A DNA stretch of 22,439 nt from a virus (taxonomy: Duplodnaviria; Heunggongvirae; Uroviricota; Caudoviricetes): the IMG/VR virus record IMGVR_UViG_2700989165_000009, one strand, 5' to 3'. This document shows positions 2,088 to 21,511 of this stretch, in pieces. The position numbers were made by a program, and so were the translations under genes. The notes under the pieces are model-generated. The model searched no databases and was not told the origin of the DNA. It saw only the letters and a list, made by a program, of their open reading frames with translations. How positions within the stretch are numbered: position 1 is the first letter of the stretch; each line of letters starts with the position of its first letter.

Positions 2088-2091
2088 TTCG

Positions 2092-2883: not shown

Positions 2884-3563
2884 TAGAGTATTGTCCCCCA
2901 TGCTCCAACATCGAACCCGCCGATGTATTCGTTATCCATATCAAACCCAAAGAATTTAGAGCCCTCGGATGGTGCTTCTACCGAAGGCGTTTCAACATCA
3001 CCGGCCCATACGCCAGCTGCTTTAACGGTGAGATAGCCCTGTTTGATAGCGGCAATCAGTTCAAGAGACACATCAGAAATATCAGTCTCGGGGAATACCC
3101 AAACCGATATCGTCATGTCCTGGTTGTCGACAATTTGCATCCTCAGGCCTGAGCCTTCAGTCGCAGCGTCAAGGATGGGAGGCAGAGAGTCGTTCCGACC
3201 GTCCCAGTTGTTGATAGCGATTTTCGCTTTCAGAATGATGCGGTACGTCTCATCGCTTAGCGTCGTATAGCCAGAATCAGGATCATATGGCCCTTTCCAG
3301 ATGCCCTGGTCATACCCAAGCCCGTCAGTGTCCCAGCTGAAATAAACTCCGCTAATTGGCTGGCTGACTATGCGACTGCGTCCGATCCACAGACCGAGGA
3401 TGTCGAGCTGTACACCGACAGCAGTATCAATATCGAAGGCTGTTATAAGCCCTGACATAGTGCTGGACACATCAATCAGCGGGCGGGTGCTCAGATCTAT
3501 ATGGTCAAAAAAGAGTGGCTTGGTAGCGTGGTAGTTAGTGATCAGTTCGGTGTATTTGCTCAT
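2883..3563 (-). CDS. Baseplate wedge / tail-fiber-attachment protein (Mu gp48 or P2 gpI-like position)
   Basis: 226-aa ORF between the baseplate J-like gene and the tail fiber gene, start overlapping the upstream stop. Family assignment is by position and from memory only. Confidence 0.5.
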   Translation of the reverse strand: MSKYTELITNYHATKPLFFDHIDLSTRPLIDVSSTMSGLITAFDIDTAVGVQLDILGLWIGRSRIVSQPISGVYFSWDTDGLGYDQGIWKGPYDPDSGYTTLSDETYRIILKAKIAINNWDGRNDSLPPILDAATEGSGLRMQIVDNQDMTISVWVFPETDISDVSLELIAAIKQGYLTVKAAGVWAGDVETPSVEAPSEGSKFFGFDMDNEYIGGFDVGAWGTIL

Positions 3564-4818: not shown

Positions 4819-5172
4819 TTATGCCTCGCTTGTTACAGTCGTCTGGCCGTAGATTGTGTCAATGGAGGAAGTGAAGGTGACGCGACGGCTGGTGCCGTCA
4901 TAATTGGTATCGAAGGAAAGAATCGACAGAACGCCCGGTGTATCCTGTATGCGTTCGCGTATAGCCAGGATGTAGACATCTGATCGCTGCTTCCCAAGCA
5001 CTGACTGAACATACGGCGTGCCTTCCGTCAGATCGAGAAACCACTGACCGCGCCACAGCTCGAAACGGGTTTTTACGGCCTGGGCGACACATTCCGGACT
5101 GTCGATAAGGAAAGTATCGTCACCCTGGCCGAAAGTGTAATCGCCTTCAGTATCTTCGCGACGGTATCGCAT
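4819..5172 (-). CDS. Small baseplate protein (gpW/Mu gp46-like position)
   Basis: 117-aa ORF coupled to the upstream gene by an ATGA overlap at 5172 and followed directly by the J-like gene. Assignment is by synteny. Confidence 0.5.
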   Translation of the reverse strand: MRYRREDTEGDYTFGQGDDTFLIDSPECVAQAVKTRFELWRGQWFLDLTEGTPYVQSVLGKQRSDVYILAIRERIQDTPGVLSILSFDTNYDGTSRRVTFTSSIDTIYGQTTVTSEA

Positions 5173-5912
5173 TATTGCGGCCCTCCGGTAGTTCCCCCGC
5201 CAGTCTGTACTCCGCCATGTTTATGCGTGGCGACACTGATACCAGAAGCTGTTACGTCATTCGTTACCGTCACCGGCCCAAGCATCGTCGCAGTACCGCC
5301 GCTTTCGCCCATTCCCTGAGACAAGTTGCCATTAATCGTTACGTTGCCGTTCAGCGTGATAGTCGGGGATGTGATTGTCGTTCCACCTTCAGCCGTAGCT
5401 GTAAGCTGGCCCGGTGTTTTAATGGTGATGTTATGTCCTGCGGCGACTTCTACAAACGCCGCACCATCATCGGTTCGCAGCTGCGCGGCGCTGGTACTGA
5501 TACCGCTGATTTTCCGTGCTTGCGACTGCGGGCCAACGATGGCGAACGCATCAGATAAGTCATGCTGGCGCGGGTCGACGGTCTCCTGAACGCCGCCGCT
5601 CTGCCACCAAAAATCGATGCAACGGTCAGCAAAAATCAGGAGGCACTCGTCGCCTTCTTTTACCGGAAAGGTCAGCGTGCAACCGCCGCCGCGCGGGAAG
5701 ATGACCGGCACATCCACCAGCGGTTTTAATTCGGTGGATCCATCGCCAACAATACCGCGTAGCGCCACCTCTACTGTGCAGGTAACAGTCTCAGGATCGA
5801 ACGACTGAATGATGCCGGGCATCGCTACGCGCATCTGGGTAGACACCGAATCGGCAATGGCCTGCGCGGTCTGCTGCTCACCGCCGATCTGTGATTGAGT
5901 TGGAATTGGCAT
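5172..5912 (-). CDS. Baseplate central spike protein (gpV/Mu gp45-like)
   Basis: 246 aa with a Gly/Thr-rich beta-helix-like C-terminal half ending ...VATHKHGGVQTGGGTTGGPQ, an HxH apex-like motif. GGGGG ribosome binding site 4 nt upstream of the ATG at 5912. Confidence 0.6.
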   Translation of the reverse strand: MPIPTQSQIGGEQQTAQAIADSVSTQMRVAMPGIIQSFDPETVTCTVEVALRGIVGDGSTELKPLVDVPVIFPRGGGCTLTFPVKEGDECLLIFADRCIDFWWQSGGVQETVDPRQHDLSDAFAIVGPQSQARKISGISTSAAQLRTDDGAAFVEVAAGHNITIKTPGQLTATAEGGTTITSPTITLNGNVTINGNLSQGMGESGGTATMLGPVTVTNDVTASGISVATHKHGGVQTGGGTTGGPQ

Positions 5913-5923
5913 AAAACCCCCAT

Positions 5924-5947
5924 AAAAAAACCAGCCGAAGCTGGTTT
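5924..5947 (-). terminator. Intrinsic terminator-like hairpin, possibly bidirectional, at the left border of the moron island
   Basis: On the minus strand AAACCAGC-ttcg-GCTGGTTT is followed by TTTT and then ATGGGGG, giving a 7-nt U-run; on the plus strand an A-tract precedes the same hairpin. Confidence 0.5.
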
Positions 5948-6134
5948 GGTATCAATTATCTCTTAGTAACTAAGCTACATCAGTGTGAAGTAAGGCTTTT
6001 CCGCTGCAATGGCACACATTCACAAGGTGTATTAGGATATGTTTGCAACAAGTAAGCATTGAAAATCAATTTCAGCCATGAAGCCGCCATAGAGTGGACC
6101 TGCACCATCGCATTATTGACTACAGGAGTAACAA

Positions 6135-6425
6135 ATGGGATTTAGATTTCGTAAAAGAATCCGGATTGCGCCCGGACTCGCGATCAACATTAGTAAAAGC
6201 GGAGTAAGCACTTCAATTGGTGGTAAAGGTTCCACCATTAACATCGGGAAAAAAGGCGTAAAGATGACAAATGGCCTTCCCGGCACGGGGCTGTCGCATA
6301 CCACTAACCTTTACTCTCCCGGGAAATCGACAGAAAAAAAACAACTTACTCATAAGCAAAAAATAATTAGAAACATCCTGTTCGTAATTATTGTGTTTAT
6401 AATAATTAAAGCTCAATATTTTTGA
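6135..6425 (+). CDS. DUF4236-like small membrane protein (moron gene)
   Basis: ATG at 6135 with a strong AGGAG ribosome binding site 5-6 nt upstream. N-terminus MGFRFRKRIRIAPGLAINISKSG...GLPGTGLS matches the DUF4236 signature as I recall it. C-terminal hydrophobic helix IIRNILFVIIVFIIIKAQYF. It is the only non-acyltransferase gene on the plus strand, and its 3' half is AT-rich. Confidence 0.65.
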   Translation: MGFRFRKRIRIAPGLAINISKSGVSTSIGGKGSTINIGKKGVKMTNGLPGTGLSHTTNLYSPGKSTEKKQLTHKQKIIRNILFVIIVFIIIKAQYF

Positions 6426-6430
6426 CGCAT

Positions 6431-6461
6431 GCCCGCCTATCTGGCGGGCTATTTTACTTTT
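6431..6461 (+). terminator. Rho-independent terminator after the DUF4236 gene
   Basis: GCCCGCC-tatct-GGCGGGC perfect 7-bp GC stem followed by TATTTTACTTTT, starting 5 nt after the TGA stop. It overlaps the last codons of the convergent minus-strand gene. Confidence 0.6.
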
Positions 6462-6793
6462 CGGCAGTCGTATGTTGCATACTGACGCGGCGAATCCATG
6501 CTGGCTTGCAGCCACTGTGCGTTGAGAATGGCTTTGCCGTTTCGATTGATGTACTCAAGACCAACCCATCTTCCAGGCTGATCGGTAGCCATACGCCAAT
6601 CCATCTTGATATTGTTATAATCGCCTTTGTTTTTCAGGAAGGTGATTTTTTGCATTTCTGGCTTTGCGCCATTGATTCTGGCTAAGCCATCATCTGCCCA
6701 ATGGATTTTAAAATCACCACATTGCTGATCCGCAAAAGCGGGTGCTGATATAAGCACCGCGAACACGGTAACAGTGCAAAGTAAATGTCTCAC
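6449..6793 (-). CDS. Small secreted (periplasmic) protein of unknown function (moron gene)
   Basis: GTG start at 6793 preceded by a GAGGTGG ribosome binding site. Predicted Sec signal peptide MRHLLCTVTVFAVLISAPAFA with an AxA cleavage site before DQQ. The roughly 93-aa mature protein has Cys near both ends. It begins 12 nt after the baseplate hub gene stop. Confidence 0.6.
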   Translation of the reverse strand: MRHLLCTVTVFAVLISAPAFADQQCGDFKIHWADDGLARINGAKPEMQKITFLKNKGDYNNIKMDWRMATDQPGRWVGLEYINRNGKAILNAQWLQASMDSPRQYATYDCRKVK

Positions 6794-6805
6794 GGCCCCA
6801 CCTCA

Positions 6806-7870
6806 CTAATTCGTCGTCCCTTGCATTGCTTTCGGGCTATAAAGATCACGAGCGCCACGCGCAAAACACATCAAATCCATGTACCACGCCTGACCTCTGG
6901 TGTCGCCAGTATAGTCGATAGCTTTGACGATATAAACGCCATCCGTCGCAATGCTGGCAGCCTGTGACGTCGTGCCGGTCAGCACACGGTTGCCGTTCTC
7001 TTCTGTTTCGGTGATACGCCCGGGCGACTGTGCTATTTCGCTATTGCCGAGCGTGGCGCGGTACACCGAAGCCTGATCGAGCTGGATAAGACCATTAATA
7101 CGGATGTTTGGGTTTATCAGGCACCGCACGTTTACTCCGCCACCCATCGTTTGTTGCGGCATACCGATCAGGCCAGTATTGGCATTCAACACAATGGCTT
7201 CGTGAATATATTTATCCTCCGGCACCATCTGGACCTGACCATCCACCAGTTGCCATGTCGCTTTGCACTGCGCAGCAATATTATCCATCACGTTGCGGCT
7301 GGATGAGTAAATCGCGCGGCCACGAGGAAACACGGTATCAGGAAAATCGCCGGTAATGCCCTGTGTCACGCCGAACGCGTTGAAATCCTGCATCGTCGCC
7401 CGGTGCAGATCCGCAACGGTATATCCAGCGGCAAGCGTGGTGATGGTGGTCGCATAGAGGAACGCTTCGTGATCACCAATGGCCTGAATCAACACCCAGG
7501 AATCCGTAATGTTGTCCTTCCCGGTGACGGTGAAGCGAATATCACCGTCAAAAATCAGGCCGTAGTTCTGACCGTTCACCTGCCCTATCTGGTCTGGTGA
7601 AATCTCCCGGGACACACCAACCTGGCTCGCATCAACATCCGGCGCTATACCGTCATACCCGGCAATGATGCGAATTTTGGCAAACTCCTGCCCAAGTATC
7701 TTGTTCGTGGTATCGGTCGAAAGGTTGTAAATTTTCACGTTCGCCACGCGCGGCCAGCGTGTGTCTGCCCACTCGATCTGGAACGTGACCTTAAAGTCAG
7801 ACAGGGAAACGCCCTGCCCGTTCTGGTCCAACAGTTGCAGCTCAAAATGGCGCATCCAGTTAAGAGACAT
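6806..7870 (-). CDS. Baseplate hub-like protein (Mu gp44 / P2 gpD-like position)
   Basis: 354-aa ORF in the tail operon between the post-tape-measure small genes and the spike gene. ATG at 7870. Assignment is by synteny. Confidence 0.5.
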   Translation of the reverse strand: MSLNWMRHFELQLLDQNGQGVSLSDFKVTFQIEWADTRWPRVANVKIYNLSTDTTNKILGQEFAKIRIIAGYDGIAPDVDASQVGVSREISPDQIGQVNGQNYGLIFDGDIRFTVTGKDNITDSWVLIQAIGDHEAFLYATTITTLAAGYTVADLHRATMQDFNAFGVTQGITGDFPDTVFPRGRAIYSSSRNVMDNIAAQCKATWQLVDGQVQMVPEDKYIHEAIVLNANTGLIGMPQQTMGGGVNVRCLINPNIRINGLIQLDQASVYRATLGNSEIAQSPGRITETEENGNRVLTGTTSQAASIATDGVYIVKAIDYTGDTRGQAWYMDLMCFARGARDLYSPKAMQGTTN

Positions 7871-7872
7871 TT

Positions 7873-8178
7873 CTACTCCTGTACGAAAATGAGGTGGCTG
7901 TATGTGCCGAGGTTGGTTTTGGTGGGCTCGTCTGGTGCGCCCTTATCGGTCGCCACCACCAGCGCGCCATCAATGCCAAGCTGTGGATATTGTCGTAAAA
8001 GGTTTACGCCGGTCAGTAGAGGTACGCCAGAGAGAAGCGCGGCACCGCCGCTATCCATCACGTCCATAATCCAGCCAGCCGCATCACGCCAGATGATCCT
8101 GAGTGTATACGTGGTATTGCCCAGCAAAACTCGGAACTGCTGATTGTCAGGAGAAAGCGGTATTTCGTTAAACTGCAT
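7873..8178 (-). CDS. Small tail/baseplate assembly protein
   Basis: 101-aa ORF, tightly coupled to flanking genes, ATG at 8178. Confidence 0.45.
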   Translation of the reverse strand: MQFNEIPLSPDNQQFRVLLGNTTYTLRIIWRDAAGWIMDVMDSGGAALLSGVPLLTGVNLLRQYPQLGIDGALVVATDKGAPDEPTKTNLGTYSHLIFVQE

Positions 8179-8179
8179 A

Positions 8180-8782
8180 TCATCCCCCGAATGCTGATGT
8201 AACGCTTCCGCCCAGCTGGCTCAGCAAGGATTCGTTTGGCGGTGTAGTGGATTTCATCCCGGAATTCTGCACCGCCGATGTGCTGACGCCATCCTGCATA
8301 TCTGATTTATCTGCAACGCTAACGCTCTGCGTCTGCGACATGATCACTTCACGCAGGGTAAGCGTGCAGTTCAGCACGTTCTCGCTGGTTTTATCCGTTG
8401 TCACCTCGATGGCTCGCACCAGCATATTGCTGTAAACCCGCTTTCCGGTCACTACATCGAACGGCACCCTAGAGGACTGGAGATCCAGTAGTTGCTGATA
8501 GGTCTCTTTCGGGCTAAGTCCGGCGCTGAGGCCGATTGACGATGTATCAATGAAGTCCAGCAACGAACCGCCACCTGCGAAGCCGCATTCCATCGTGACT
8601 TCGCTGGGGCGCTTATACGCATGATCGGCGATGAAACCCGACGCGCTATTCGTTGTTGGCTTCTCCACCGGGTGCTCAGTAATTTCGAGCGCATCAGAAT
8701 GCTTTTCAGAAACAACCACGCTGGGGATTAATATTCCAATTCGCCGGGATTGCTGGCGAAAAATTGCTGATAAAATATCCAT
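8180..8782 (-). CDS. Tail protein downstream of the tape measure gene (distal tail/baseplate component)
   Basis: 200-aa ORF whose ATG at 8782 overlaps the tape measure stop as TAATG. Confidence 0.45.
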   Translation of the reverse strand: MDILSAIFRQQSRRIGILIPSVVVSEKHSDALEITEHPVEKPTTNSASGFIADHAYKRPSEVTMECGFAGGGSLLDFIDTSSIGLSAGLSPKETYQQLLDLQSSRVPFDVVTGKRVYSNMLVRAIEVTTDKTSENVLNCTLTLREVIMSQTQSVSVADKSDMQDGVSTSAVQNSGMKSTTPPNESLLSQLGGSVTSAFGG

Positions 8783-10797
8783 TATCTCGGTCCTGCGGGG
8801 AGTTGCTGGGTTAACTGTGAATTCACGCCCTTTTGACGGTCAACAGTCAAACGGGCAGCCTCGCGCGGATCGAAAACGCCGTGGATGTTAATATTCGTTT
8901 CCTGCTGAATCACCGGGGCGCTGGTGGGCATATTGCTCATTACTTTCGGAATGTAGTTGCGCGTTTCCTGCGGCATTAGCCCCATTCCATAACGCTTAAC
9001 ATTCCCGATCCCCCAGTTATATGATGCCAGTGCTTTGCTAAGGTCTCCGCCGTTCTGCCGCAACAGCTGGCTCAGGTACTTAGCGGCTGCCTGAGCTGAC
9101 TTTTCCGGGTCGAATACATCATTCCCACGCAGGCCCATGTCGCGCGCCGTGCCATCCATAAACTGAAACAGACCTTTAGCGCCAGCGCCTGAAACGGCGA
9201 ACTGATTACCGCCCGATTCCGTTATGGCCACGCTGCGCAATAACCCCTCCGGAAGCCGGTAGAGCTGTTCCAGGTTGGTAAACATCGGCTGCATCCATCC
9301 CAGCAGTTCAGAGCCTGCTTTGGTTGGCTGTGGCCGCTTAACTGACTGGCCGAGCTGCTCAGGCTCATCATCACCGAACCAGCCGCGCACCGTTCGGCCC
9401 ACGCTGCGAGGATCGAATCCCCAGTGCTCTTTAATCCAGTCGGCGGTTCCGTTGGCGCTGTCTGTTACCATCGGCATCGCTGACGGATTTTCGCTGCCCT
9501 GATTAAGCATCTGTTTGCCGATGCTGGCGGCATCAGCCCAGCGGCCATCTTTAATGGCGTTGAGCAGGTCGGCGATCATGTTCAGCATCTTGCCGAACTC
9601 ACCCATTTGCGAAATGAAGTTGCTAAAATCCCACTTTAGGGACCATGACTTGGGGTCAATACCGAGCAACTTAGCCAGCGCTTTTGTCAGGTCCGTAACA
9701 GTCTTTTTCAGGTCACCAATCATTTTGACGGCCTGATCAATTTCAGTCTTCCATTTCCCCCAGTCAATCAGGCTTTTGCCACCTTCTTTCCACGTCTGGT
9801 AATCATCCAAGAGCAGACCAAGTGCAATAATAAGCGTCGTTATCATGCCCAAGGGTGATGACATGAAAGCGGTATTTAGCAGCCGCCATGCAACCAACAG
9901 CCCACTGAACAATGCGATAAGCTGCTGCGTGGCTGGGTTCAGCTTTTTGAACCAGGCGATCACACCCTCAACAGCTTGCCCAGTTCGCCATAACACGCGG
10001 GTAATCGCGTCACCTGCCCAGAGAATTCCTTTGATGATCTTCGTGATGACCGCTTCAATCTTCGGCCAGTTGTCGAGTATCTGCCTGCGGAAGTTATCAA
10101 TACTGCCAGCAAGGCCACCAGCTAGGTTAGAGCCAATCTTGTCTTTCGCCTGTCCAAGCGTCATCGTCAGATTACGCATGGAGGTCATGAAAATATTGGA
10201 CTGTTTAGCCGCTGACTCAGCATTAAAACCAATACGCTTTGCCGTCAACGCGTACTCAGAACTGAGCTGCCCCATCCCTCTGCGCATCGCCATCAGCGTG
10301 TTTTCATCGATGCCGAGCATCTGCGCGTATTGCTTCGCGCGGTAATACGGCATGTTGTTGAGCTTTTGGCCAACGCCAGTAAAGATGGCAGCAGTATCAC
10401 GCATCTTTCCGCTGGCATCGCGGGTCTGGACACCAAGACGGTTCAGGAACCCTTCCGCCCCCGGATTGCTACGCATGAAGCCAGCCAACCCTTCGAGGGA
10501 GGACATAGCCGACTCGGCGCTGGCACCGGTTTGCGATGCGGCGTATCCCAGCGCTTTGATGCCCTGGACACTGGCCCCCGTCCGCTGGGATGCCCAGTAA
10601 ATTTTATCCAGACCGTTCGCGATCTGAGTGGTAAATCCGACAATGCTCAGCGCTGCGCCTTTCACCACCGCGCCGACCTTCAGAACGTTCGCGGTAACGC
10701 CTTTCAGCACGGCTTCAAACTTATTAGCGCCAGCCTGATCGATATCGAATCCCAGCGAAACAAGGAAATCTTTAATCGTATCTGCGTTACCGCTCAT
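8782..10797 (-). CDS. Tail tape measure protein with a C-terminal lytic transglycosylase (SLT) domain
   Basis: 671 aa. Helical Ala/Gly/Lys-rich N-terminal half, an internal hydrophobic segment (LIALFSGLLVAWRLL...LIIALGLLL), and a C-terminal AITESGGNQFAVSGAGAKGLFQFM...YNWGIGNV region that matches the family-1 lytic transglycosylase motifs. ATG at 10797. Confidence 0.85.
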   Translation of the reverse strand: MSGNADTIKDFLVSLGFDIDQAGANKFEAVLKGVTANVLKVGAVVKGAALSIVGFTTQIANGLDKIYWASQRTGASVQGIKALGYAASQTGASAESAMSSLEGLAGFMRSNPGAEGFLNRLGVQTRDASGKMRDTAAIFTGVGQKLNNMPYYRAKQYAQMLGIDENTLMAMRRGMGQLSSEYALTAKRIGFNAESAAKQSNIFMTSMRNLTMTLGQAKDKIGSNLAGGLAGSIDNFRRQILDNWPKIEAVITKIIKGILWAGDAITRVLWRTGQAVEGVIAWFKKLNPATQQLIALFSGLLVAWRLLNTAFMSSPLGMITTLIIALGLLLDDYQTWKEGGKSLIDWGKWKTEIDQAVKMIGDLKKTVTDLTKALAKLLGIDPKSWSLKWDFSNFISQMGEFGKMLNMIADLLNAIKDGRWADAASIGKQMLNQGSENPSAMPMVTDSANGTADWIKEHWGFDPRSVGRTVRGWFGDDEPEQLGQSVKRPQPTKAGSELLGWMQPMFTNLEQLYRLPEGLLRSVAITESGGNQFAVSGAGAKGLFQFMDGTARDMGLRGNDVFDPEKSAQAAAKYLSQLLRQNGGDLSKALASYNWGIGNVKRYGMGLMPQETRNYIPKVMSNMPTSAPVIQQETNINIHGVFDPREAARLTVDRQKGVNSQLTQQLPAGPR

Positions 10798-11032
10798 TGG
10801 CCGCTCTCCATTTATCTACCCGGGCGTCGTTATCCTCGCGCATGTCGAGGTAGTCATTGAGAAGCGCGATGCGGCAAAGATCTACCGCACCGCTGTTAAG
10901 GTCTTTCTGGTCAATATGGAAGGCAAGCGCCGGGCGAAGAATAAAATCTTCACCGCCCGGCAGGCTGTTGAAGGTTATTCCGCTAGCGGGGTGGGCGTCT
11001 CGCTGGTAGGGAGTCCTTGCAAAAAATTTCCC
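10787..11032 (-). other. Programmed -1 ribosomal frameshift region of the tail assembly chaperone (G/GT-like): slippery site plus -1 frame extension
   Basis: Minus-strand slippery run GGGAAATTTTTTG (window 11020-11032; heptamer G GGA AAT, compare lambda G GGA AAG) lies 17 codons before the chaperone stop. The -1 frame is open from there across the whole 177-bp gap between chaperone and tape measure, ending at a TAA at 10787-10789 just inside the tape measure start. Confidence 0.6.
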
Positions 11033-11400
11033 AGCGAGTCGGCGACCACCCGCGCCACCAGTTGCAGCATGGTAAGCAGGTCGATATCGTCAAACGCCAT
11101 TTCGCCATGCTGGCAGACCGGCACCCAGCCTTTCATGTGCTCGCGTGAAACAACGGAAAGACAGGGGAACAGGATAGCGTCCACGTCGCCATCACTCAGA
11201 TCGGACACAGCATTGGCAATCTTTGGCAGGATAGTAGCCATCGCGCCTTCGGTGTCTTTGCTGCTGATCTTCTCCTGAACGCTCCGGAAGTCCGAAACCA
11301 TCCCGGCCAGAACCGGCAACAGCTTGCGGGACACCTTCAGCTGTTCGAAAACGCTGAGCTTTGCGGTGCGATATTTCACGCCTTTAATTTCGAATTCCAT
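10975..11400 (-). CDS. Tail assembly chaperone (zero-frame product)
   Basis: 141-aa ORF between the tail tube and tape measure genes, ATG at 11400, with the frameshift signature described above. Confidence 0.65.
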   Translation of the reverse strand: MEFEIKGVKYRTAKLSVFEQLKVSRKLLPVLAGMVSDFRSVQEKISSKDTEGAMATILPKIANAVSDLSDGDVDAILFPCLSVVSREHMKGWVPVCQHGEMAFDDIDLLTMLQLVARVVADSLGNFLQGLPTSETPTPLAE

Positions 11401-11403
11401 GCG

Positions 11404-11844
11404 TTAAAACTCCCCGAGAAGCTGGTCAATCTTGCCGCAGTCGAATACCCAGGCGACGGTTCCGCCCTCTTTAGCGTTATTGAAATCAGGCTGTTTCTGG
11501 AATGCACACGAACGCGCAGTAGAAATATCACCCGATGCCGTGTTGCGAATGACGATCACGTTATTGCCCCAGGTGGCAGAGGACTGGCTTTGCGCGTTAT
11601 ACGCCAGAGACAGCTTTTTATTCACCGGGGAGGTTTTGAGTAGCGTCACCGTAATGGTGCCTGACTTATCGGCGTGCAGGCTGTGCATCACCTCGCCATC
11701 GGCACCGATAGTCATGGTGTTTTTGTTGCCGCCCATGGTCTGGGTGATACCTTCCTCAGAGTTCGCAGAACCCTGACCAAGATCGATAACGCCGGTCGGC
11801 CCGGTGAGCGACGCGGTTACATCGAGAAAAGAATAAGTTGCCAT
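11404..11844 (-). CDS. Tail tube protein (DUF3277-like)
   Basis: 146 aa, MATYSFLDVTASLTGPTGVIDLGQG...TMTIGADGEVMHSLHADKSGTITVTLLKTSP matches the myovirus tail tube family from memory. AAGGAG ribosome binding site 7 nt upstream of the ATG at 11844. Directly downstream of the sheath gene. Confidence 0.7.
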   Translation of the reverse strand: MATYSFLDVTASLTGPTGVIDLGQGSANSEEGITQTMGGNKNTMTIGADGEVMHSLHADKSGTITVTLLKTSPVNKKLSLAYNAQSQSSATWGNNVIVIRNTASGDISTARSCAFQKQPDFNNAKEGGTVAWVFDCGKIDQLLGEF

Positions 11845-11854
11845 TTATCGCTCC

Positions 11855-13000
11855 TTAGCGAACCACGTTGATCTGCACATCGGCATAATGAACTGCGCCA
11901 GCCAGCTTACAGGCCACCTGGATTAACGGTGCTTTGCGCGCTTCACGGTCGGCCTGCGCCTGTTCGGACAGCGGTTGCGCATACACGTAATAGCCTTTGG
12001 TCAGCGTATCGCCGGAATTCAGCTGTCCGATAGGGCCACCATTCCACACGCCAGCAGCTACCAGACCGTTCGTGACGGACTGATCCATGGACTGTTCAAC
12101 GTTGGAAAGCAGACGGGTCACACCGGCATCAGTCTGCGGAATTTTGGTGGTGCTGGTGTAAAGCAGGTTATAGAGGTTGGTCTGAACGTAGTTCTGCAAC
12201 CAGTCGAGCCCGTGGCGCTCGTCGAAGAAGTCACCGTTCGCCATGACACCCTGTTGCAGGATCGCCGTGTCGTTGGCGTAGTACACGAATACATTGCAGT
12301 TTTTTGCATCAAGTGCCGATGCCTGGCTGACTGTCAGTGTTTCATACCCGACACCCGGCTCCTGCTTAAACTTGAGCGTAATCGCGGTATTACTGCCATT
12401 GAAATTAACCGTGAATGCCCGGCCAAATGCAGATAACGCAGCGTATTTATTACCCGATGAATATTGAATAAAACTGCGTGAATATCCGGCGGTTTTCAGT
12501 TTTGATGCCAAATCATCGCTGGATGCAGTCTGCAGGCATTTCTCATCGCTTGTCGTAATCGCCAGAATACGGCTTACAGAAGAGGATTCGATCGCCGCAG
12601 CCACTTTCAGCCAGTCTGCATCCGGAATATCTTCATCGTCTGCAATCCCCAGCCCATACCATGAAGTATAATCGAGCATGGCATTCACAGCCTGCTCCAG
12701 CGTCTCAGGCGTGGCCTGTTCGCTGTCTCCCTTCGTTTTCACCCAACGACCAACAAAAACCTCCTGAGGTTTCGGTGATTGTGAGAAAAACACCTGCGCA
12801 GCCTTATATTCTGGTGATTCCACGCCAAAATCTTTTCCAATATCTTCCGCGGCAGAATAACGGCGAATGCACTCACTTACCGGAATGATTGTGGACGGGC
12901 CGAGAATGAGTAATGCACCAAAATTTCGCCCTGATGCTGCACGCGGCGACATGATCACATCAACATTAACAACGTTTGATACAGGCAAGCCCTGTGCCAT
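11855..13000 (-). CDS. Tail sheath protein (DUF3383-like)
   Basis: 381 aa, [34 protein letters not shown]... Sheath-tube-chaperone-tape measure gene order. Confidence 0.7.
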
Positions 13001-13003
13001 AGC

Positions 13004-13561
13004 TTAATCTCCGAAAAAGATGACTGGTGCTTCCACCAGCGATTTAATACCGTACTCGCGCACAACCTTCCGGCGCAGACGCACCGTCATATCGTAGCGG
13101 CGGACCCATTGCTGATTAATAAGTTCAGGGAAGAGACCTGTGTAATCGCCAAGAGACAGCCCCAGCGCATTCAGTGCTGCGTTGTTCTGCGGTACAGATA
13201 TACCGTCACGAAACCGGGACGCATACACCATCCCCGCCGGACCATAAAACGAAGCCATACACTCAATCGTTTCATGCCGCCAGAGCTGAGAGCCATCATC
13301 GGTCTGTCTGGTGAATGCCGGACTGTCATCCCCTGCCCATCCGATAACCCCAAACGCACACCAGTTCGTTTCAACCGGTAGCAGTGGCGGCTGCTCTTTC
13401 TGCCAGCGCGGGCGAACCATCCCGGCAGACAGACCGGAAACGTTACGCATCCACTGGCTTAACAGCCTGTCGAGCGCTTCGTCATAATCCGGATCGCCAC
13501 TGGTTGGTATTAACCATCCGCGCTCTGTACTGGTGTTATTGCTCAACCGGAGTTCCCCCAT
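13004..13561 (-). CDS. Tail completion / neck protein (hypothetical structural protein)
   Basis: ORF in the head-tail joining block. The first ATG is at 13561; the track's start at 13564 is a TTG. Confidence 0.45.
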   Translation of the reverse strand: MGELRLSNNTSTERGWLIPTSGDPDYDEALDRLLSQWMRNVSGLSAGMVRPRWQKEQPPLLPVETNWCAFGVIGWAGDDSPAFTRQTDDGSQLWRHETIECMASFYGPAGMVYASRFRDGISVPQNNAALNALGLSLGDYTGLFPELINQQWVRRYDMTVRLRRKVVREYGIKSLVEAPVIFFGD

Positions 13562-13925
13562 CAAACGGCATCAACTCACAATGCGCCTGAACGAATCCGG
13601 CCCCATAAGCTGTATACGGGTCGACGAAGGTCACACGATAATCACGGCCCTGATACGTCACGATATCGGCATCACGGCCAGTCTGTCCCTGCGTCAGTCG
13701 CTCAGTCGTCACAATCAGAATTGCACCGCTGATTACCTGCCCTGCCTGCATACGGCGGTTTTCCAGAGAGCGATCAACAGTTACGACTCCGGCAAACTGC
13801 TTTTTAACTTCACTGTCGCTGCCGATCCCGTCCTCATCCACCGTTTGCACTCGGCGTGTTACCCACAAATTGAAGTCGCAAAAATCGGGGTCAAAAAGCA
13901 CATCTGTTACATCAAGAGTCGGCAT
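13536..13925 (-). CDS. Head-tail joining protein (hypothetical structural protein)
   Basis: 129-aa ORF, ATG at 13925, overlapping its neighbours. Confidence 0.45.
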   Translation of the reverse strand: MPTLDVTDVLFDPDFCDFNLWVTRRVQTVDEDGIGSDSEVKKQFAGVVTVDRSLENRRMQAGQVISGAILIVTTERLTQGQTGRDADIVTYQGRDYRVTFVDPYTAYGAGFVQAHCELMPFDGGTPVEQ

Positions 13926-14466
13926 CTTTATCCCTCACAACATGGGTAATAGCTCTGCGATATTGCCCGGTGTCAATTAATGGTTTCGCCAGATCGGTTC
14001 CGGGAGATTCGCCAGCAACACGCCGAGCAAGTTCCAGTGTTGCCCCCTTGCGCCCCCGACGAGCCCGGGCTTCAACGGTGCTATCAGCAAGCGGTGTAAA
14101 GCCGGTAATGGTCATGTAACGCCTGACGCCATTCGCGGCCAGCGTTCCGGCGCGGTTAAGCGCTCTTTCCGCACCCGCCGCATTTCCATCAAGCGCAGCC
14201 TGCGCCGCTGCTTTGAGCTGCGGCACCGTCTGTTCCTCTACGGATTTAACGCCGGGGATCAGGTGCGGGCGTGGGGGTATGTTTTGCGCTGGTGAGCCGT
14301 ATTCGTTGACGTAACCGATCCCGGCATTACCAAACGGAACATCCTCACGCTCGCTGTCTTCTTCCGGGATGCCCACCAGCACATCCTTTTTGGTTAGCGA
14401 CCGGAGCGCATCCAGAATGGCCTGAGCGTTATCAACCCTCGTTGTTACACCACTTTTGAAACTCAT
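13912..14466 (-). CDS. Head completion / connector protein (hypothetical structural protein)
   Basis: 184-aa ORF, ATG at 14466, ATGA overlap with the upstream gene. Confidence 0.45.
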
Positions 14467-14870
14467 AGCTGGCGACCGCCCGCACCGAACATCGTGATCA
14501 GCTGATAAAATTCAGCGCCATATCGGGTGTTATTCCAGAAGCCTGCGTCAGGGTTTAGCGTCGCGCTGGTGTCATAGCTGACGCTTACCTTGTCAACGGA
14601 CTTGGAGGACTGAACACCATTGGTTGAACCGCCCGGGCCGCCAACCAGCATTGCCCGACTATCTGCCGCCCATAGCGTCATGTAGTGAGCCACGAACAAC
14701 CCGGCAAAGTACGGAAACAAATCTTTGCCGGTGACGTTTTCGCTCAGCAGTTCATCGGCCAGATTCAGACGAAACTGGATTTGCGCTTCGGGATATTTGG
14801 CAGGGTCAGCAAACTGCGGGAAGTCGCGGCGAAAATCACTTACCGCTGGCAGGCTTTGATTCTTTGGCAT
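14463..14870 (-). CDS. Head-tail connector protein (DUF4054-like)
   Basis: 135 aa, [35 protein letters not shown] resembles the DUF4054 N-terminus from memory. ATG at 14870. Confidence 0.5.
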
Positions 14871-15057
14871 TTTTTACCTCGTTACGCGCGTCTGTGGCTT
14901 TGCCAACGGATACTTCCGCGTGCGCACGAGTGAACCAGTGCGTGGCAACGTCTTCCTCCACTGCATGACGGCCTTTAACAAACTCGCGCCGCGAACCGTC
15001 GGGAAGCGTGAGCACAAACGGGGTATGTACGTGTATTACTGCATTATTTTTTGCCAT
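14836..15057 (-). CDS. Small hypothetical protein downstream of the major capsid gene
   Basis: 73-aa ORF, ATG at 15057 with an AAGGATGA ribosome binding site 6 nt upstream. Lys/Glu-rich C-terminus. Confidence 0.4.
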
Positions 15058-15070
15058 CGGGTCATCCTTA

Positions 15071-15092
15071 ATGGCCCCGCCAGGGGGGCCAT
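15071..15092 (-). promoter_or_regulatory. GC-rich stem-loop immediately 3' of the major capsid gene (attenuator or mRNA-stabilising hairpin candidate)
   Basis: 8-bp stem (ATGGCCCC / GGGGCCAT) with a 6-nt loop, 8 nt after the capsid gene stop at 15100-15102. No U-tract follows. Confidence 0.4.
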
Positions 15093-15099
15093 GTGGCTG

Positions 15100-16041
15100 T
15101 TAAATGCCATCAACGTACGAAATGGTTTCTTTGTACACTGGCTCAACCGCACCCAGCTTGCCGTAGTAGGTCGCAATCTGATACAGACCGCGATACTGGA
15201 TAGGAACGCTCTGCAACGGCACCAGCGGATAGCGGACGTATTTTTTATCGTTGGTGTACGCAACCATGCGATCCTTATTCCCCACACCACGGCCTTTCAG
15301 CCATTTAACCGCGCGGATATTCAGCGGAACACCGTTCTGGTGATAGCTGATGGTGTTGGTCTGAAGGTACGTCAACAGGGACTGGTTACCCGCAGATGAA
15401 ACGATGATGCTGGACAACAGAGCAAACTGCTCTGGCGGGATCAGCAAATCACGCGGAACCACAGAGTAACCGGAAGCGGCCCACGCATCAGACAGCACCT
15501 GGTTAATGCTTGCGCGGATTTCGTCCGGTGTTGAGATTGCCCACGTTTTGGCAGCGTTGTTGACAGGCACGCCGTCCAGGGTAACAAGGCCTTTCAGGTT
15601 TAATGCGGAATCGCCAACATACACCTGCTCGTCGTTGTCCATCTGCCATTTGAGCTGCATCCCGTCGTACTTCTGGGTGTCAATCGGGCGACCTACCTGC
15701 TGAGCTGCTGCCAGCTCTACAACGGTCCAGCCCAGTTCCATGCCCCAGAGATTCAGCGGGTTACCGGATTTGCCGATATCCACGTTTACGCCAGCAATAG
15801 CGGTTGAGTCTTTGCCTACCCAGTTTTTGCCATTCGGATTTGCACCAGTACCCGCAGCGGCGAAGCTGGTATTCGTCCAGCTGGAAATGTCATCTGCGAT
15901 AGAGACATCTTCACGCAACTGAATATCGCGGGTCCAGGTGTCCCCCGCCAGTGGCAGGTTCAGAGTCTGGTCGAGTCGCTCCAGCTCTCCGATGAGAAAG
16001 GCACCAGAGCTGTCAACGGTTGCCTGATCAAAAGTAATCAT
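15100..16041 (-). CDS. Major capsid protein
   Basis: 313 aa. Position after the protease/scaffold and small head protein genes. TAAGGAA ribosome binding site before the ATG at 16041. Followed by the stem-loop, as is common for capsid genes. Confidence 0.65.
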   Translation of the reverse strand: MITFDQATVDSSGAFLIGELERLDQTLNLPLAGDTWTRDIQLREDVSIADDISSWTNTSFAAAGTGANPNGKNWVGKDSTAIAGVNVDIGKSGNPLNLWGMELGWTVVELAAAQQVGRPIDTQKYDGMQLKWQMDNDEQVYVGDSALNLKGLVTLDGVPVNNAAKTWAISTPDEIRASINQVLSDAWAASGYSVVPRDLLIPPEQFALLSSIIVSSAGNQSLLTYLQTNTISYHQNGVPLNIRAVKWLKGRGVGNKDRMVAYTNDKKYVRYPLVPLQSVPIQYRGLYQIATYYGKLGAVEPVYKETISYVDGI

Positions 16042-16052
16042 TCGTCTGTTCC

Positions 16053-16556
16053 TTAAATCTTCCAGGAAATTTCTGCATTGCCGTTAGCATCACCGGCACC
16101 TGTGAATTCAGCGTTGGTCAGCACCACATTTTTGCCACTGACTGACGTGGACATGAATCCACCCAGCGGCACTTTGATGGATTCATCAGTGGAGACGACA
16201 ACGTATACCGGGTCGCCTTTTTTGATGGTGCTGGCATCAAAATCAGAACCGAGATTAACGGTCACGTAGCCACGCTTCATGGCGTCGCCCGGGAAGTTCT
16301 TGCCTGTTCCCACCTGGCGAACCATGTCCGGCTGCGAAGTGGTCGGATAAGGGCGCACGTAGATCCCCTTCACCTTGTCTGCGGTATCGCCATCTGCCAG
16401 CGGCACGAAAAAACCGTCAGCATCGTATTTACCAGCCAGCCCATAGGCAGCAAAGGCGTTATCGGATTTAAGGACCACCGGTTCGACGGTTAAGTCCTGC
16501 GGGCGAGAGATAGCCCCGGCAATGCCAACAGGCATCCGGTACAGATATGCAGTCAT
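16053..16556 (-). CDS. Head structural protein (decoration/cement or scaffold-like)
   Basis: 167-aa ORF between the protease/scaffold gene and the capsid gene, ATG at 16556. Confidence 0.5.
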   Translation of the reverse strand: MTAYLYRMPVGIAGAISRPQDLTVEPVVLKSDNAFAAYGLAGKYDADGFFVPLADGDTADKVKGIYVRPYPTTSQPDMVRQVGTGKNFPGDAMKRGYVTVNLGSDFDASTIKKGDPVYVVVSTDESIKVPLGGFMSTSVSGKNVVLTNAEFTGAGDANGNAEISWKI

Positions 16557-16560
16557 TGGA

Positions 16561-17781
16561 TTATCCTTTGCGGTTAGACCAGAATTCGGAGTTTTGTTTG
16601 TTCAGGGAAGCGATACTGGTCATGCCCATGTTTGGACGTTGTGCATCGCCCGTGGTGCTGCGGGTGTTTCGCCCTTTGGCAATCTCAGACACAGCGTTAA
16701 ACGCCATATCGACCGATTGCTTAGGCAATTTGCGGATATCCGCATCACCGACAACCTGGCGAACCAGCGTTTTGTCAGCAGAAGCCAGAACCTCGCGTTT
16801 GAACACGGTCGGTTTCATCTTACGGCTCAGATCGATACCCGGAACGATAACTTCGGCACGCCAGGCTGAGTCACCAGTAATCGTGGTTTCCTCTTCATCG
16901 TCCTCGCCGTCACCGGTCGGATTATCGTCAGGTTTATTATCGTTATCGCCCGTGGCATTTCCTTCCAGCTTAGCCAGCAGGGCTTTCAGTAATGTTTTGA
17001 GGTCATCATCACTGTCGCCGGTTGGACCTCCGCCCATCTCTGGTACTTTGTCCGGTAGCGGTTGCTGCGGGGACAGGTTGATGTTGAGATTAACGCCCTG
17101 CGGCAAATCCCCCTCATCTCCTGTAACCGATGCGGGAGCCGACTCCACCAGTTCGTTCATGGTGTCAGCGTCACCCGTTTTGATGGCCGTGCGCATGCGG
17201 GTCCACCAGCTTTTCTTTTGATTTGCCATTGTGTCTCTGTCTCCAATTGCACAACGATTTCCGGCTCTGCCTTTGGGGACAAGAGCCACATGGTTTCCGG
17301 TAATATCGACCTGCTCGGCTTTACCTGGCTCGGTCTGCTCGTACTCCGCGTCATAGCCGCACGACACTTCACGCAGGCCATCTTCGATAAGCTGAATGGC
17401 GTTTTCGTCTTTGACGATAAGGTCAGCCAGCATCAAATCAGAGTGGTCACCCGTCCCGCGCCGCACATTCTGAAGATGCCCGACAGCAAGCTCTTTCCAG
17501 TTCTCGGGATTTACCAGCCGCACATTCCCGTTTTCATCTTCAGGATGCAGGATCGTGATGCTCATCCCTTCGAATGAGGCGAGCGTGGCCGGATGGAATA
17601 CCTGCTCAGGAGAGCGCGTTACGACTATCTCACCGAGCTTGTCGGGTTTGAGGTTTGGCAGATCGGCAGCGCCGTAGAGCTGTTTACCCGTTCGACCTAT
17701 CGGCACGTCTTTGCACAGCAGCGAGCCGTCAGCCAGCTGATAGCGGGTTTCCCCCAGCCGGGTATTGAAAAAATATTTCAT
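16561..17781 (-). CDS. Putative prohead protease/scaffolding protein (DUF2213-like)
   Basis: 406 aa with a highly acidic, low-complexity middle region (GDNDNKPDDNPTGDGEDDEEETT) typical of scaffold-like proteins. Located between the head morphogenesis and capsid genes. Confidence 0.55.
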   Translation of the reverse strand: MKYFFNTRLGETRYQLADGSLLCKDVPIGRTGKQLYGAADLPNLKPDKLGEIVVTRSPEQVFHPATLASFEGMSITILHPEDENGNVRLVNPENWKELAVGHLQNVRRGTGDHSDLMLADLIVKDENAIQLIEDGLREVSCGYDAEYEQTEPGKAEQVDITGNHVALVPKGRAGNRCAIGDRDTMANQKKSWWTRMRTAIKTGDADTMNELVESAPASVTGDEGDLPQGVNLNINLSPQQPLPDKVPEMGGGPTGDSDDDLKTLLKALLAKLEGNATGDNDNKPDDNPTGDGEDDEEETTITGDSAWRAEVIVPGIDLSRKMKPTVFKREVLASADKTLVRQVVGDADIRKLPKQSVDMAFNAVSEIAKGRNTRSTTGDAQRPNMGMTSIASLNKQNSEFWSNRKG

Positions 17782-17795
17782 GGTTTACCTGCGAT

Positions 17796-18569
17796 TCAGG
17801 CGAGATAAGAATGAGGGTTGGGAAAAACGATTTCTTTATAACAGCGACAATTCGGGAGCTCGCCAGCGTGACCGGTCATGCCATCAAGCGTTGGAGGTTT
17901 GCCCCATTCGACAAACTTACCTTCCATCTCCCGATGAGAATGCCGGACGTCGCCATCTTCGGCTGTACGCCAGATATAACCATTCGAGCCGATTGACAGC
18001 GCACGCGCCTGATCGAGCGCGCCGGTTGCACGTCCAAGCTCGGTACGGGCGATAAGGTTCGCTCGTGAGCGTGACACGTCACCGGACGCTGCTATCTCTT
18101 TCGCGAATGGTTCAGCGCGGCCACCAGCCACAACGGCCTCGATGGCCTTGTTCTGAATGTCATACACCCGATCGGCGGCCTCAAGAGGCAGTGACTTGAT
18201 ATACTTAATTTGCTCGGCGACGATGGATTTCATCACCTGGCCTACCGGGGCGCGGTCGACCATGTTGCGCAGCTCTGCGCTGATGTTCCGGCTGTGCTGA
18301 CGCCACTGCTTTTCATTCTGGCGTGCAATGTCGGCGGTAAAGTTCTCAGCAACCTTCGTCGCCCAGGGGGTGATGATTTCGCTGTAGCGCTCCAGCGCAT
18401 CCATTATTTCGGTAACGCTATCATTTGAACCATCGTAGCGCCCATTTACGATATCCCCGACCGCCCGCGCTATCTGCCGTAGGCTCGTTCGATATCGGAT
18501 CTCCGCCTGGCGGCTCTGGCGGTTTGTCGCCAAGTTCGCCGATGCCTGGCGGCGCTTCGTCTTCGGCAT
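17796..18569 (-). CDS. Head morphogenesis protein (Mu gpF / SPP1 gp7 family)
   Basis: 257 aa, ATG at 18569, directly downstream of the portal gene as in Mu. The ORF overlaps the portal 3' end by 149 nt in another frame. Confidence 0.7.
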   Translation of the reverse strand: MPKTKRRQASANLATNRQSRQAEIRYRTSLRQIARAVGDIVNGRYDGSNDSVTEIMDALERYSEIITPWATKVAENFTADIARQNEKQWRQHSRNISAELRNMVDRAPVGQVMKSIVAEQIKYIKSLPLEAADRVYDIQNKAIEAVVAGGRAEPFAKEIAASGDVSRSRANLIARTELGRATGALDQARALSIGSNGYIWRTAEDGDVRHSHREMEGKFVEWGKPPTLDGMTGHAGELPNCRCYKEIVFPNPHSYLA

Positions 18570-19674
18570 TCTCGATATCCTCGTCGGTAATGGATGCCCC
18601 GATGCCGGTGACGTCAGAGTTTTCGCGCAGGTCGGTCATCGCCGCCTTACGCGTCATCAATCCGTCGCCCAGCGCGGTACTAATCGCGTTGGTGGTGTTT
18701 ACGGCCACCGTTGATCGGTCAACGTCTGACATTTGCCATAGCGGGTTAAACTCAAACGTGAAATCGTCCGGCAGCGGCTTTCCGAGTTCCGAGCGGTGCA
18801 TAATGTCCAGTATCCGGCGCATCGGCAGCCGTAAGCGGCGCTCCTGCAATGAGCTCACCCGGTCGTAATAGTTGGCGAGGTCTGCATCACCAGTAGAGAA
18901 GCCTTTCGGGGATTGACCGAACAGTCGCACCAGCGGGATACCAACGGCACCGCTAATCTGCTCAGCAAACTGCGAAAGAATGTCATCCAGACCACTAAAG
19001 CTGTACTGGTGGGTTTCGAACTTATCCCGCGAGTCCATGAGCGTCATACCTTCATTGCTCTGGAACTGGCGGATCAGGTCGATGTTCTTCAGCAACGCCT
19101 CGAACGCCGGGCCTCCAAGCGCGATAAGCTCGCGCAACTTCTCCACGCTATAGGTACGCAGATGTGCTTTGTAGACCAGCTGCGCCGCGCCGACAGTGGC
19201 GCTGTCGAACGCAGTAAGCCGATCCCAGATACGCTCTACAACCGACATTCCCCATTCGTTTTCGGTCATCTTCTGCTGGAATGGCAGCGTCACCCCGTCG
19301 AAGCGAATCAGGCGGCTGTGATGGATGCGCCAGGCCGGGATGCCCGTTGCAGTGGTCACCACGTCGTAAAACTCAGGTTTGCCGAGATCTGGCCCCATCT
19401 CTTTAATGCGGCGGGTCAGGACCGGGTTAATCATCCAGCGGTCGAGCGGGAGAATGCCCTTAAACTTGCCTTCTCCAATGGTTTCGAGCCGCAGCGGGGT
19501 CATTGGTGCCTGCCCCTCGATCATGATGAAGCCGACCGCGCCGCCGTAGAGGCGAGACCATTTCAGCACGTCGTTCAGCGCATCCCAGATTTGCAACTCA
19601 TCCAGTTGTGATTCGAGAATGCCACGATCTTTTGCATCAATTTCCGAAGTGATGCGAATGCCTTTGCGGGTCAT
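18421..19674 (-). CDS. Portal protein (as the uninterrupted ORF; the true gene probably starts at 19887, see pseudogene entry)
   Basis: 417-aa ORF immediately downstream of the large terminase gene, with an acidic C-terminal tail. Confidence 0.7.
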   Translation of the reverse strand: MTRKGIRITSEIDAKDRGILESQLDELQIWDALNDVLKWSRLYGGAVGFIMIEGQAPMTPLRLETIGEGKFKGILPLDRWMINPVLTRRIKEMGPDLGKPEFYDVVTTATGIPAWRIHHSRLIRFDGVTLPFQQKMTENEWGMSVVERIWDRLTAFDSATVGAAQLVYKAHLRTYSVEKLRELIALGGPAFEALLKNIDLIRQFQSNEGMTLMDSRDKFETHQYSFSGLDDILSQFAEQISGAVGIPLVRLFGQSPKGFSTGDADLANYYDRVSSLQERRLRLPMRRILDIMHRSELGKPLPDDFTFEFNPLWQMSDVDRSTVAVNTTNAISTALGDGLMTRKAAMTDLRENSDVTGIGASITDEDIENAEDEAPPGIGELGDKPPEPPGGDPISNEPTADSAGGRGYRKWALRWFK

Positions 19675-19713
19675 ATCATCCGGGATAGCATCGACCGCTT
19701 CGCCGATAATCTA

Positions 19714-19887
19714 GGACGAACGATAGGACCATTCCACCAGCATGCGGTTACGACTGGTGAAATTAGCCCGGTAGGTGGATGCTGAGTGCTGGTTAGGTGT
19801 CTGCATCCCCACGCGGGCAACAAAGTTCTCATAGCCATCAGCGGTGGCCTGTGCCGTTCGCCGCGTGGCTTGTTTGTTTCGTGCCAT
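19714..19887 (-). pseudogene. N-terminal 58 codons of the portal gene, cut off from the rest by an in-frame TAG at 19711-19713
   Basis: An ATG at 19887 overlaps the large terminase TGA stop (ATGA coupling). It opens [58 protein letters not shown], then TAG, then continues in the same frame as IIGEAVDAIPDD-MTRKGIRI... into the portal ORF. Confidence 0.6.
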
Positions 19888-21509
19888 CAGGCCTGTCTCC
19901 CTAGCAGCTCCCAGATGTTCAGGGCTGAATTCATTGGCGCGTAGCTGATCATCACCGAGTCGGCAAGGTTTGGCGACCGGGTTCCATCAGGCTGTTTATC
20001 AATAACGATTTTTCCCACACCATTAATGGAATAGGTCGGCTGCGAAAGCTCGATGATGAGTTTATCTTTGAGTGCCATGCTACTGCTGATTGAGATGATT
20101 TCGTCCGGGTTGTAATCCATACCTTCAACCACGGCGCGCCAGGTATTCTGAAAAAGTTTACGTAACCGCCACCAGCTCTGGGCTTTGGCGTTAGCGAAGA
20201 AGTCCTTGTTCAGGCGGGCGGCCTGTCCGTTGTCACCGCGCACCGCTTCGTCGTCCGGATCAAATACCGCGCCACTACCTCGAAACGGTGTGGCGAGTAT
20301 TGACGGTCGGCGCGCAGCGTTACGCAGTTCGTTGATAGCGCGTGCATCGCCGCGAACGCCAGCGCCCAACCCGTCCTCGTCAAAGCGAAACTCTTCGAGG
20401 TTGTCCTGTTCGCAAAAGCCGAAAACCTTCTCGACGGACTGATAAATGTCGCTGCCCACACCGGACCATTCCCGCACATTCTCCAGGAGGAAGCCATGAC
20501 GGGTGGAAAAGGAATTTTTGTCCCTGCCTTCGTCGGCGACGTCCATCGCGCCCAGTCGCTTGCCTGTTGGCTGGATGCCCAGCTTGATATGCGCGTCGAC
20601 AGCAGCCTGTACCCATTCGGATGGAATCAGGACGCCTTCCGCTGATGCACTGTAGTTCAGGTCAAGTTCCTGTGCCACCACCACCGGATTGTCGATTTTC
20701 TCGCATTCCCTGCGATACCACTCTTCATCCTTGCGAGGATCATCCCGCCAGTGGAATGTGAATACCGGTATCTTCCCGCCATGACGCTTCTGAGCGAACG
20801 GGTTCGCCATGCCGTTAACTGAACTCAGGTCAATACGGCAACGCGTCGTTTGTGACAACGCCGCATCAATCAGCAGAGGACGCTGAAGGAATGCAGACTC
20901 ATCAACCAGATAAAGCGTGGTACGGTCACCACGGCCAATATTATCGCCAGCCTCACCTTTGATAACGGCACCAGTTTCAGGAAACTCAACGCGCATGTAT
21001 GGTGCGTGCTTCTTTTCGTCCCACGAACCTCGAAACTCTACAGGTAGTGTTTCCACGAACTTGCGCGCCTTCCAGAACAATGCTTTCGGGTCACCGGTGC
21101 TGTCGACGTATTCCTCTTTACGGGAGCCGAAACCGATAACCATTTCTTTGTTGAAGAGACAAAGCGAGCATGCCAGCCCGATCGCGGTCCAACTGAGCCC
21201 CATTTCACGGGATTTTTCGGTAATACCATTCTCCCGATTACCCCAGCGTTCCATAATCCAGTGGATCCACTCCTCCTGCTTAGGGAAGAGTAAAAACGGA
21301 ATGGTCACCGGCAGGCCATAATCAATATTACGCGGGTCCGTTGTCATGCCCCAGTCGATGATGAACTGAGCCGGATTGGTTCGGTAAAACTGTTTTAGTG
21401 CAGGCAATATTTCAGGATTCTGGCGAATGCGCTGTAGGCGTTCCATCCGCCATTCAAAAACCATCTGGTAATCAGGATGTTTAAAATCGAAGGGGAATGG
21501 TAACGGCAT
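19887..21509 (-). CDS. Terminase large subunit
   Basis: 540 aa. ATG at 21509, 2 nt after the small terminase stop. Located upstream of the portal gene. Confidence 0.85.
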
Positions 21510-21511
21510 AC

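Follow-up and report, generated by a model that had tools for sequence, protein, structure and literature searches.

Amber codon at a conserved tryptophan position in the portal pseudogene of an IS-bounded prophage remnant, most likely arisen at a Dcm site

The window, by which is meant the whole stretch of 22,439 nucleotides analysed here (IMG/VR record IMGVR_UViG_2700989165_000009, Caudoviricetes), holds a block of phage late genes in which the portal gene is interrupted by a single TAG codon. The question raised by this locus is whether the stop is an error of a draft sequence, a codon that the element tolerates or uses, or a step in the decay of a prophage, and by what kind of change it came about.

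Read on the minus strand, the portal frame opens with the ATG at 19887-19885, and its translation gives 58 sense codons before the TAG at 19713-19711 (codon 59), which is the sole break in a 488-codon frame running to 18421. Downstream of the TAG there are 429 sense codons, followed by a stop at 18423-18421. The N-terminal product, MARNKQ...EWSYRSS, ends at the TAG, and the next in-frame ATG after it is found at 19674, codon 72, where it heads a listed ORF of 417 amino acids. The 58-codon ORF before the amber (19711..19887, minus strand) appears as a gene of its own, of 58 aa, among the gene calls for GCA_000566045.1 and SRR18753409, and the Pfam match of the residual 417-codon ORF from Met72 (18421..19674, minus strand) begins at profile position 24 of 357. 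A sequence-only reading made earlier had placed a TAG at codon 59 of the portal gene, in frame with the annotated ORF, and this is what the minus-strand reading and the translation returned. It had also described the portal start as coupled to the stop of the large terminase (TerL) gene by an ATGA overlap. Coupling may reasonably be assumed, but the four-base ATGA did not stand, as the TerL stop TGA (19889-19887) and the portal ATG share one base, 19887, in the sequence TGATG. The same one-base overlap is found in annotated homologues, with TerL ending at and the portal beginning from position 2714.

The identification of the gene as a portal, proposed before any search had been made, is well borne out. 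With codon 59 read as Trp, the repaired protein scores 351.8 bits against PF06381 (gathering cut-off 33.8), and the match covers its residues 55-402 and positions 7-355 of the 357 in the profile. The SEN34 portal aligns over 1-488 with 94.9% identity (tblastn), and the Pam3 portal structure 8hds was matched with E=1.2e-35. Other solved portals, namely 9l01, 9jlf and the gp19 portals 9b41 and 8fvh (E217), gave E values of 1e-13 to 1e-21. The gene order of small terminase (TerS), TerL, portal, MuF-like, gp24-like, cement and major capsid genes also fits the placement of a portal. A full-length, uninterrupted frame, as looked for in a member of this portal family, is broken in the window by the TAG at codon 59. 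The gene (Phage_portal_3/DUF1073; 18421..19887, minus strand, 488 codons and stop) is recorded as a pseudogene on the basis of translation, Pfam, the SEN34 alignment and the 8hds match, and the 58-aa and 417-aa ORFs are two pieces of it.

Shortened portals occur elsewhere in this prophage family. The portal of the E. coli B/BL21 copy (L002, 2714-3472) ends prematurely at about 253 codons, and its annotation, 'anti-CBASS protein Acb1 family protein', misleads as to what is a portal of PF06381. In four IMG/VR copies (L077, L081, L091 and L104) the first portal stop is at codon 254, as in BL21.

Alignment with homologous portals, which had been suggested together with the sequence-only reading, was carried out and gave Trp (TGG) as the residue at the interrupted position. 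TGG at codon 59 and a start at the coupled ATG were found in all four annotated homologues of 488-489 aa, which are those of E. coli 13C1065T, BL21, phage vB_EcoM-606R2 and Salmonella phage SEN34. The nearest of these, E. coli 13C1065T, shows one difference from the window in the first 240 nt, a G at gene position 176 where the window has A. The stop is no product of a spurious reading frame. Ten loci that are 99.9% identical to the window, retrieved through their identical TerL protein, each have TGG at this codon together with a gene call for a portal of 488 aa. LR213452.1 is one of them, and two of the ten come from chromosomes that papers name as S. flexneri. Among the 120 pattern matches in IMG/VR, TGG was seen in 117. 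Trp59 falls within the region matched by PF06381, and the portals of Pam3 (YRNSWV) and E217 (HWLV) likewise have Trp at this position. Although synonymous differences occur, the copies from E. coli, Salmonella and metagenomes encode the same, or almost the same, 58 residues at the N-terminus. The terminase-coupled ATG proposed as the true start agrees with the annotated starts of the homologues, among which no start equivalent to 19674 was seen. Because every homologue examined starts at the coupled ATG with TGG at codon 59, the mutation is taken to be W59amber, a single G-to-A change at a conserved Trp codon (19711..19713, minus strand; mutated base 19712), and the nonsense mutation that had been suspected is thereby specified as TGG to TAG.

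The mutated base lies in a former Dcm site (19711..19715, plus strand). The ancestral coding strand TCC TGG corresponds to CCAGG on the plus strand, where the window has CTAGG, and judged from the sequence and the ancestral contexts position 19712 is the inner, methylatable C changed to T. Amber hot spots in E. coli are classically put down to deamination of 5-methylcytosine at Dcm sites, and lacI is the gene in which such hot spots at CC(A/T)GG were reportedly first described, by Coulondre, Miller, Farabaugh and Gilbert in 1978. In the window, the inner methylated C at 19712 would have been deaminated to give T, by which CCTGG on the coding strand would have become CCTAG. Enumeration of the one-step nonsense paths in the portal gene gave 148, of which 45 are transitions, and just two of them (2/148, or 2/45 transitions) go through the inner C of a Dcm site, at W59 and W186; the mutation struck W59. 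A dcm gene and C5mCWGG methylation are documented for S. flexneri 2457T (PMC12215381). Since the ancestral site is a Dcm site and the same TAG recurs on a different haplotype, as described below, 5-methylcytosine deamination at this site is most likely the origin of the mutation.

The recurrence was found in three IMG/VR records, L118, L121 and L136 (UViGs 2671180821, 2681813271 and 2671180338), different genomes that carry the same TAG and are about 89% identical to the window. Their flanking haplotype is TCA TCC TAG ATC and differs from the TCG TCC TAG ATT of the window. TGG versions of both haplotypes exist and are common, and the nearest TGG relative of the L118/L121/L136 lineage differs at 3 of 1470 nt. 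Because the haplotypes differ and each has its TGG counterparts, two independent origins are indicated, and the change from TGG to TAG at codon 59 appears to have arisen twice. Transfer of the TAG between the lineages by recombination was considered and rejected, as different synonymous alleles stand 4 and 5 nt to either side of the mutated base. The second lineage also carries Q126amber, and in L136 the end of an IS1 abuts the cement gene and the capsid and tail genes are gone, so this lineage too is a decayed, IS1-truncated remnant. A further stop at portal codon 59 was found in L017, a metagenome phage contig about 96% identical (ENA ERZ27274739 k141_173132, 8887-9063), where it is TGA in the context TCA TGA ATC, on a haplotype without the Dcm site. 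The genes upstream on this contig are Dam, Nin, Q, holin, lysis and KilA-N, and its TGA is an independent opal mutation of the same Trp. Stops at codon 59 have thus arisen at least three times, twice as TAG and once as TGA, in searches that were anchored on codon 59 and hence carry an ascertainment bias, and Dcm cannot explain all of the recurrences because the TGA lies on a haplotype without a Dcm site.

The explanation that competes best with a Dcm origin accepts a real nonsense mutation in a decaying remnant and ascribes it to an ordinary replication error or another G to A change, so that the Dcm position would be coincidental. This is unlikely but far from negligible, as changes of G to A happen often, TGG lies one step from a stop and is a usual nonsense target, and the Dcm change could not be told apart from a plain transition that owes nothing to methylation. 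It also gains from the stops that arose outside Dcm sites, which are the TGA of L017 and the Q126 stop of the L118 lineage (CAG to TAG in GGCAGG). A coincidence would nevertheless have had to strike one of the very few Dcm-type paths, and to be matched by the identical change arising independently on another haplotype. Moreover, a further CCAGG to CTAGG change is seen in the same remnant of another strain (CP055132.1), at window position 17327 in the gp24-like gene, where the window and other strains have CCAGG and where no stop is created. Deamination at the Dcm site accordingly stays the preferred origin of the W59 stop.

The surroundings of the portal gene bear on what the stop means. The window is a late-gene remnant of about 22 kb of a SEN34/Brunovirus-like myovirus prophage, bounded by IS1 and by an IS3-family element. 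The large terminase gene (19887..21509, minus strand) is intact with 540 aa, the SEN34 TerL aligning over 1-540 at 95.4% and the identical protein occurring in 2291 index blocks. It is preceded by the small terminase gene (21512-22066, minus strand, about 184 aa; gene call and Pfam) and by an HNH endonuclease gene (22068-22409, minus strand, 113 aa; HNH_3 match). The HNH gene directly upstream of the small terminase is the usual HNH-terminase pairing, and some 30 nt further on comes the junction with the IS3-family element. The remaining late genes occupy 1686..18407 on the minus strand (tblastn of SEN34 proteins, Pfam) and comprise the MuF-like, gp24-like, cement, major capsid, connector, sheath, tube, chaperone, tape measure, baseplate, and tail fibre and assembly genes. 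By tblastn they are all full length relative to SEN34 except for an N-gap in baseplate J, and of the 27 late genes that follow the small terminase in SEN34, 24 encode proteins that align with the window in the same order. The gap is a run of 92 N (4225..4316), either a scaffold gap or a masked stretch, and a frameshift in baseplate J (frames 4090-4818 and 3560-4093) was rejected as the split is due to this run.

At the other end of the window, an IS1 end (insA side; 1..331, minus strand) bounds the tail-fibre and acyltransferase side. The evidence for it is the gene calls at the corresponding position in L022-L027, with Zn_ribbon_InsA, HTH_Tnp_IS1 and DDE_Tnp_IS1, and the region 1..331 has thousands of chromosomal and plasmid matches. 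The prophage-borne acyltransferase (Acyl_transf_3; 394..1395, plus strand, 333 aa; Pfam) adjoins this IS1 at the end of the remnant and is very widely retained, the identical protein being found in 1687 index blocks; it may be an O-antigen or surface-modifying moron, which would explain the persistence of that end of the prophage. In complete genomes an IS3-family element (HTH_Tnp_1 and rve) lies directly upstream of the HNH and TerS genes, and homology to the window begins exactly at the boundary of this element, which is the window end 22439 (BLAST, L028-L033, locus position 5071). Beyond the IS3-family element follow a truncated integrase and then chromosomal yjbH/wza/etp/etk, and at the other border of the complete chromosomes the order is acyltransferase, IS1, and then torT, torR, torCA and cbpAM. 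In a chromosome of the Shigella flexneri type, the remnant has the tor/cbpAM region on one side and the gfc/etk region on the other. The host type is assigned because accessions with the same remnant are named in papers: LR213452.1 is S. flexneri AUSMDU00008355 (PMC9376355), and CP034060, which shares the left-hand part with the acyltransferase and adjoining tail genes, is named in a S. flexneri paper.

Neither an intact integrase nor immunity, replication, antitermination or lysis modules are found in the remnant in the 99.9%-identical complete chromosomes, and in the fuller E. coli relatives the corresponding position is filled by genes for holin, lysozyme, a lysis protein and KilA-N. The TAG-bearing strain would, by comparison with these complete genomes, carry the same remnant, its contig ending at the presumed IS junction. 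Related loci have been damaged in other ways. Among S. flexneri-type chromosomes, CP026871.1 has lost the entire head and tail block, an IS3-family element following directly after the tail-fibre gene, and CP034060.1 lacks two baseplate genes and has an IS in the Dit-like gene. Further loci have shortened gene calls, some of them possibly sequencing artefacts. Such varied lesions among strains are the pattern of neutral decay.

The sequence-only reading had regarded the amber as what would make the prophage defective. This did not hold up, since the IS-bounded remnant without early and lysis modules is also found in strains with TGG, and the amber cannot be the cause of a defect when these modules are already missing there. 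The portal gene is most likely no longer under selection, and the stop is best explained as one lineage-specific step of decay, that is, as ordinary pseudogenisation, an explanation which taken as a whole is held with high confidence. Translation from the coupled ATG would end after 58 residues, and any re-initiation at Met72 would yield a portal without the start of the conserved domain, as the Met72 product lacks PF06381 profile positions 1-23, the conserved Trp included. As far as comparison of the copies can tell, nothing points to programmed read-through, because the stop is not conserved among relatives, with TGG in 10/10 close loci and in 117/120 IMG/VR copies.

It could be argued that the late cluster is functional and that the stop is tolerated or used, through amber suppression, read-through, re-initiation at Met72 or a portal that a further, related prophage provides in trans, the element then being, for instance, helper-dependent or particle-producing. 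All late genes in the window except the portal are full length, codon-59 stops are found in three lineages, two related copies are present in some E. coli genomes, and, as is generally known, a capsid needs only 12 portal subunits. Against this, no tRNA gene was found in the window by ARAGORN, the stop is missing from the ten 99.9%-identical relatives and nearly all IMG/VR copies, and the regulatory and lysis modules by which particles could be expressed or set free are gone. The other TAG lineage has, in addition to its second stop, lost capsid and tail genes, and the Met72 product is without the first positions of the domain. A tolerated or used stop is therefore highly improbable. That the recurrence at codon 59 reflects selection, because silencing of the portal benefits the host, because a leaky stop keeps portal at a low level (misreading of UGA by tRNA-Trp would then restore the wild-type residue), or because the 58-aa or 417-aa product has a new role, deserves hardly any credence either.

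A sequencing error, named as an option in the sequence-only reading, would leave the portal actually intact. The contig AZPH01000220.1 (GCA_000566045.1) has the TAG, is 100% identical to window positions 8421-22439 and ends one base past the window. The independent Logan assembly SRR18753409 shares with the window both the TAG and a synonymous change at 16615, and differs from it at three other sites, 15942, 13336 and 13331, all of them minus-strand T>G changes private to the window. In favour of an error, the window stems from a draft scaffold with a gap of 92 N, its three private T>G changes in GG contexts look like systematic sequencing errors of that draft, and the allele is found in no complete E. 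coli RefSeq genome. Yet SRR18753409, a different run, has the same A without the three private T>G changes, each contig is reported from 2 samples, and the change is a G>A transition, unlike the T>G type of the suspect sites. Since the same TAG is present in an assembly that differs at three other sites, an error is very unlikely, and the TAG is best regarded as an inherited allele, its reproducibility being that of the two assemblies (GCA_000566045.1 and SRR18753409). As to the suspect sites themselves, the window-private T>G changes all follow GG (GGGGT to GGGGG and similar) and lead to Y34D in the major capsid protein and to S76A and a silent change in the tail terminator.

The TAG allele is rare. 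No exact match to either TAG haplotype was found in complete E. coli genomes, and exact-pattern scans of the GTDB species-representative genomes with the TAG and TGG haplotypes returned nothing. The exact 58-aa product occurs in a handful of contigs only, as against the 2291 index blocks with the identical TerL, and the allele could be used as a lineage marker. The 23 contigs that match the 417-aa ORF were rejected as support for a truncated gene, as most of those shown begin exactly at the ATG at 19674; they are contig-edge artefacts and uninformative on codon 59. Two matches to the 58-aa peptide were discarded for the same reason, L018 ending at the T of codon 59 and L019 ending in CG at this codon. 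At least 8 draft assemblies (L007-L014) have a contig that starts exactly at the ATG at 19674, and exact-protein look-up selects such contigs. The breaks near 19674 and codon 59 may reflect a junction with an IS or a repeat, or else a bubble between alleles in a sub-clade.

The main value of these results is one of correct annotation, with one portal pseudogene in place of two genes and a dead prophage remnant in place of an inducible phage. The gene is a pseudogene member of the known PF06381 portal family and a case of ordinary gene decay. If its origin is read correctly, it also shows, in nature, the classical amber hot spot at Dcm sites at work in prophage decay, in an IS-rich genome of the Shigella type.

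Compared with the PF06381 portals of SEN34 (gp3), vB_EcoM-606R2, Pam3 (8hds) and E217 (gp19, 8fvh), the window copy likewise lies directly after TerL and shares length, one-base overlap, domain and, ancestrally, the Trp at the mutated position. Unlike them it has an amber at Trp59, and a full-length product is impossible without suppression. The likeness to the Dcm hot spots of lacI extends to the CCAGG site, the change of the inner C to T, the amber result and the independent recurrence; the lacI hot spots change CAG to TAG, whereas the stop in the window came by way of the complementary strand, from TGG to TAG. Set beside a complete SEN34-like (Brunovirus) prophage, the late region of the window is colinear and similar, but the early and lysis modules are missing. 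IS-eroded cryptic prophage remnants and the accumulation of pseudogenes are known from Shigella, and like such remnants, and like the truncated copy of E. coli B/BL21, the window is IS-bounded and has lost its early genes. It differs from them in that the lesion of its own lineage is a point nonsense mutation rather than an IS insertion or a deletion, in a late region whose other genes look intact.
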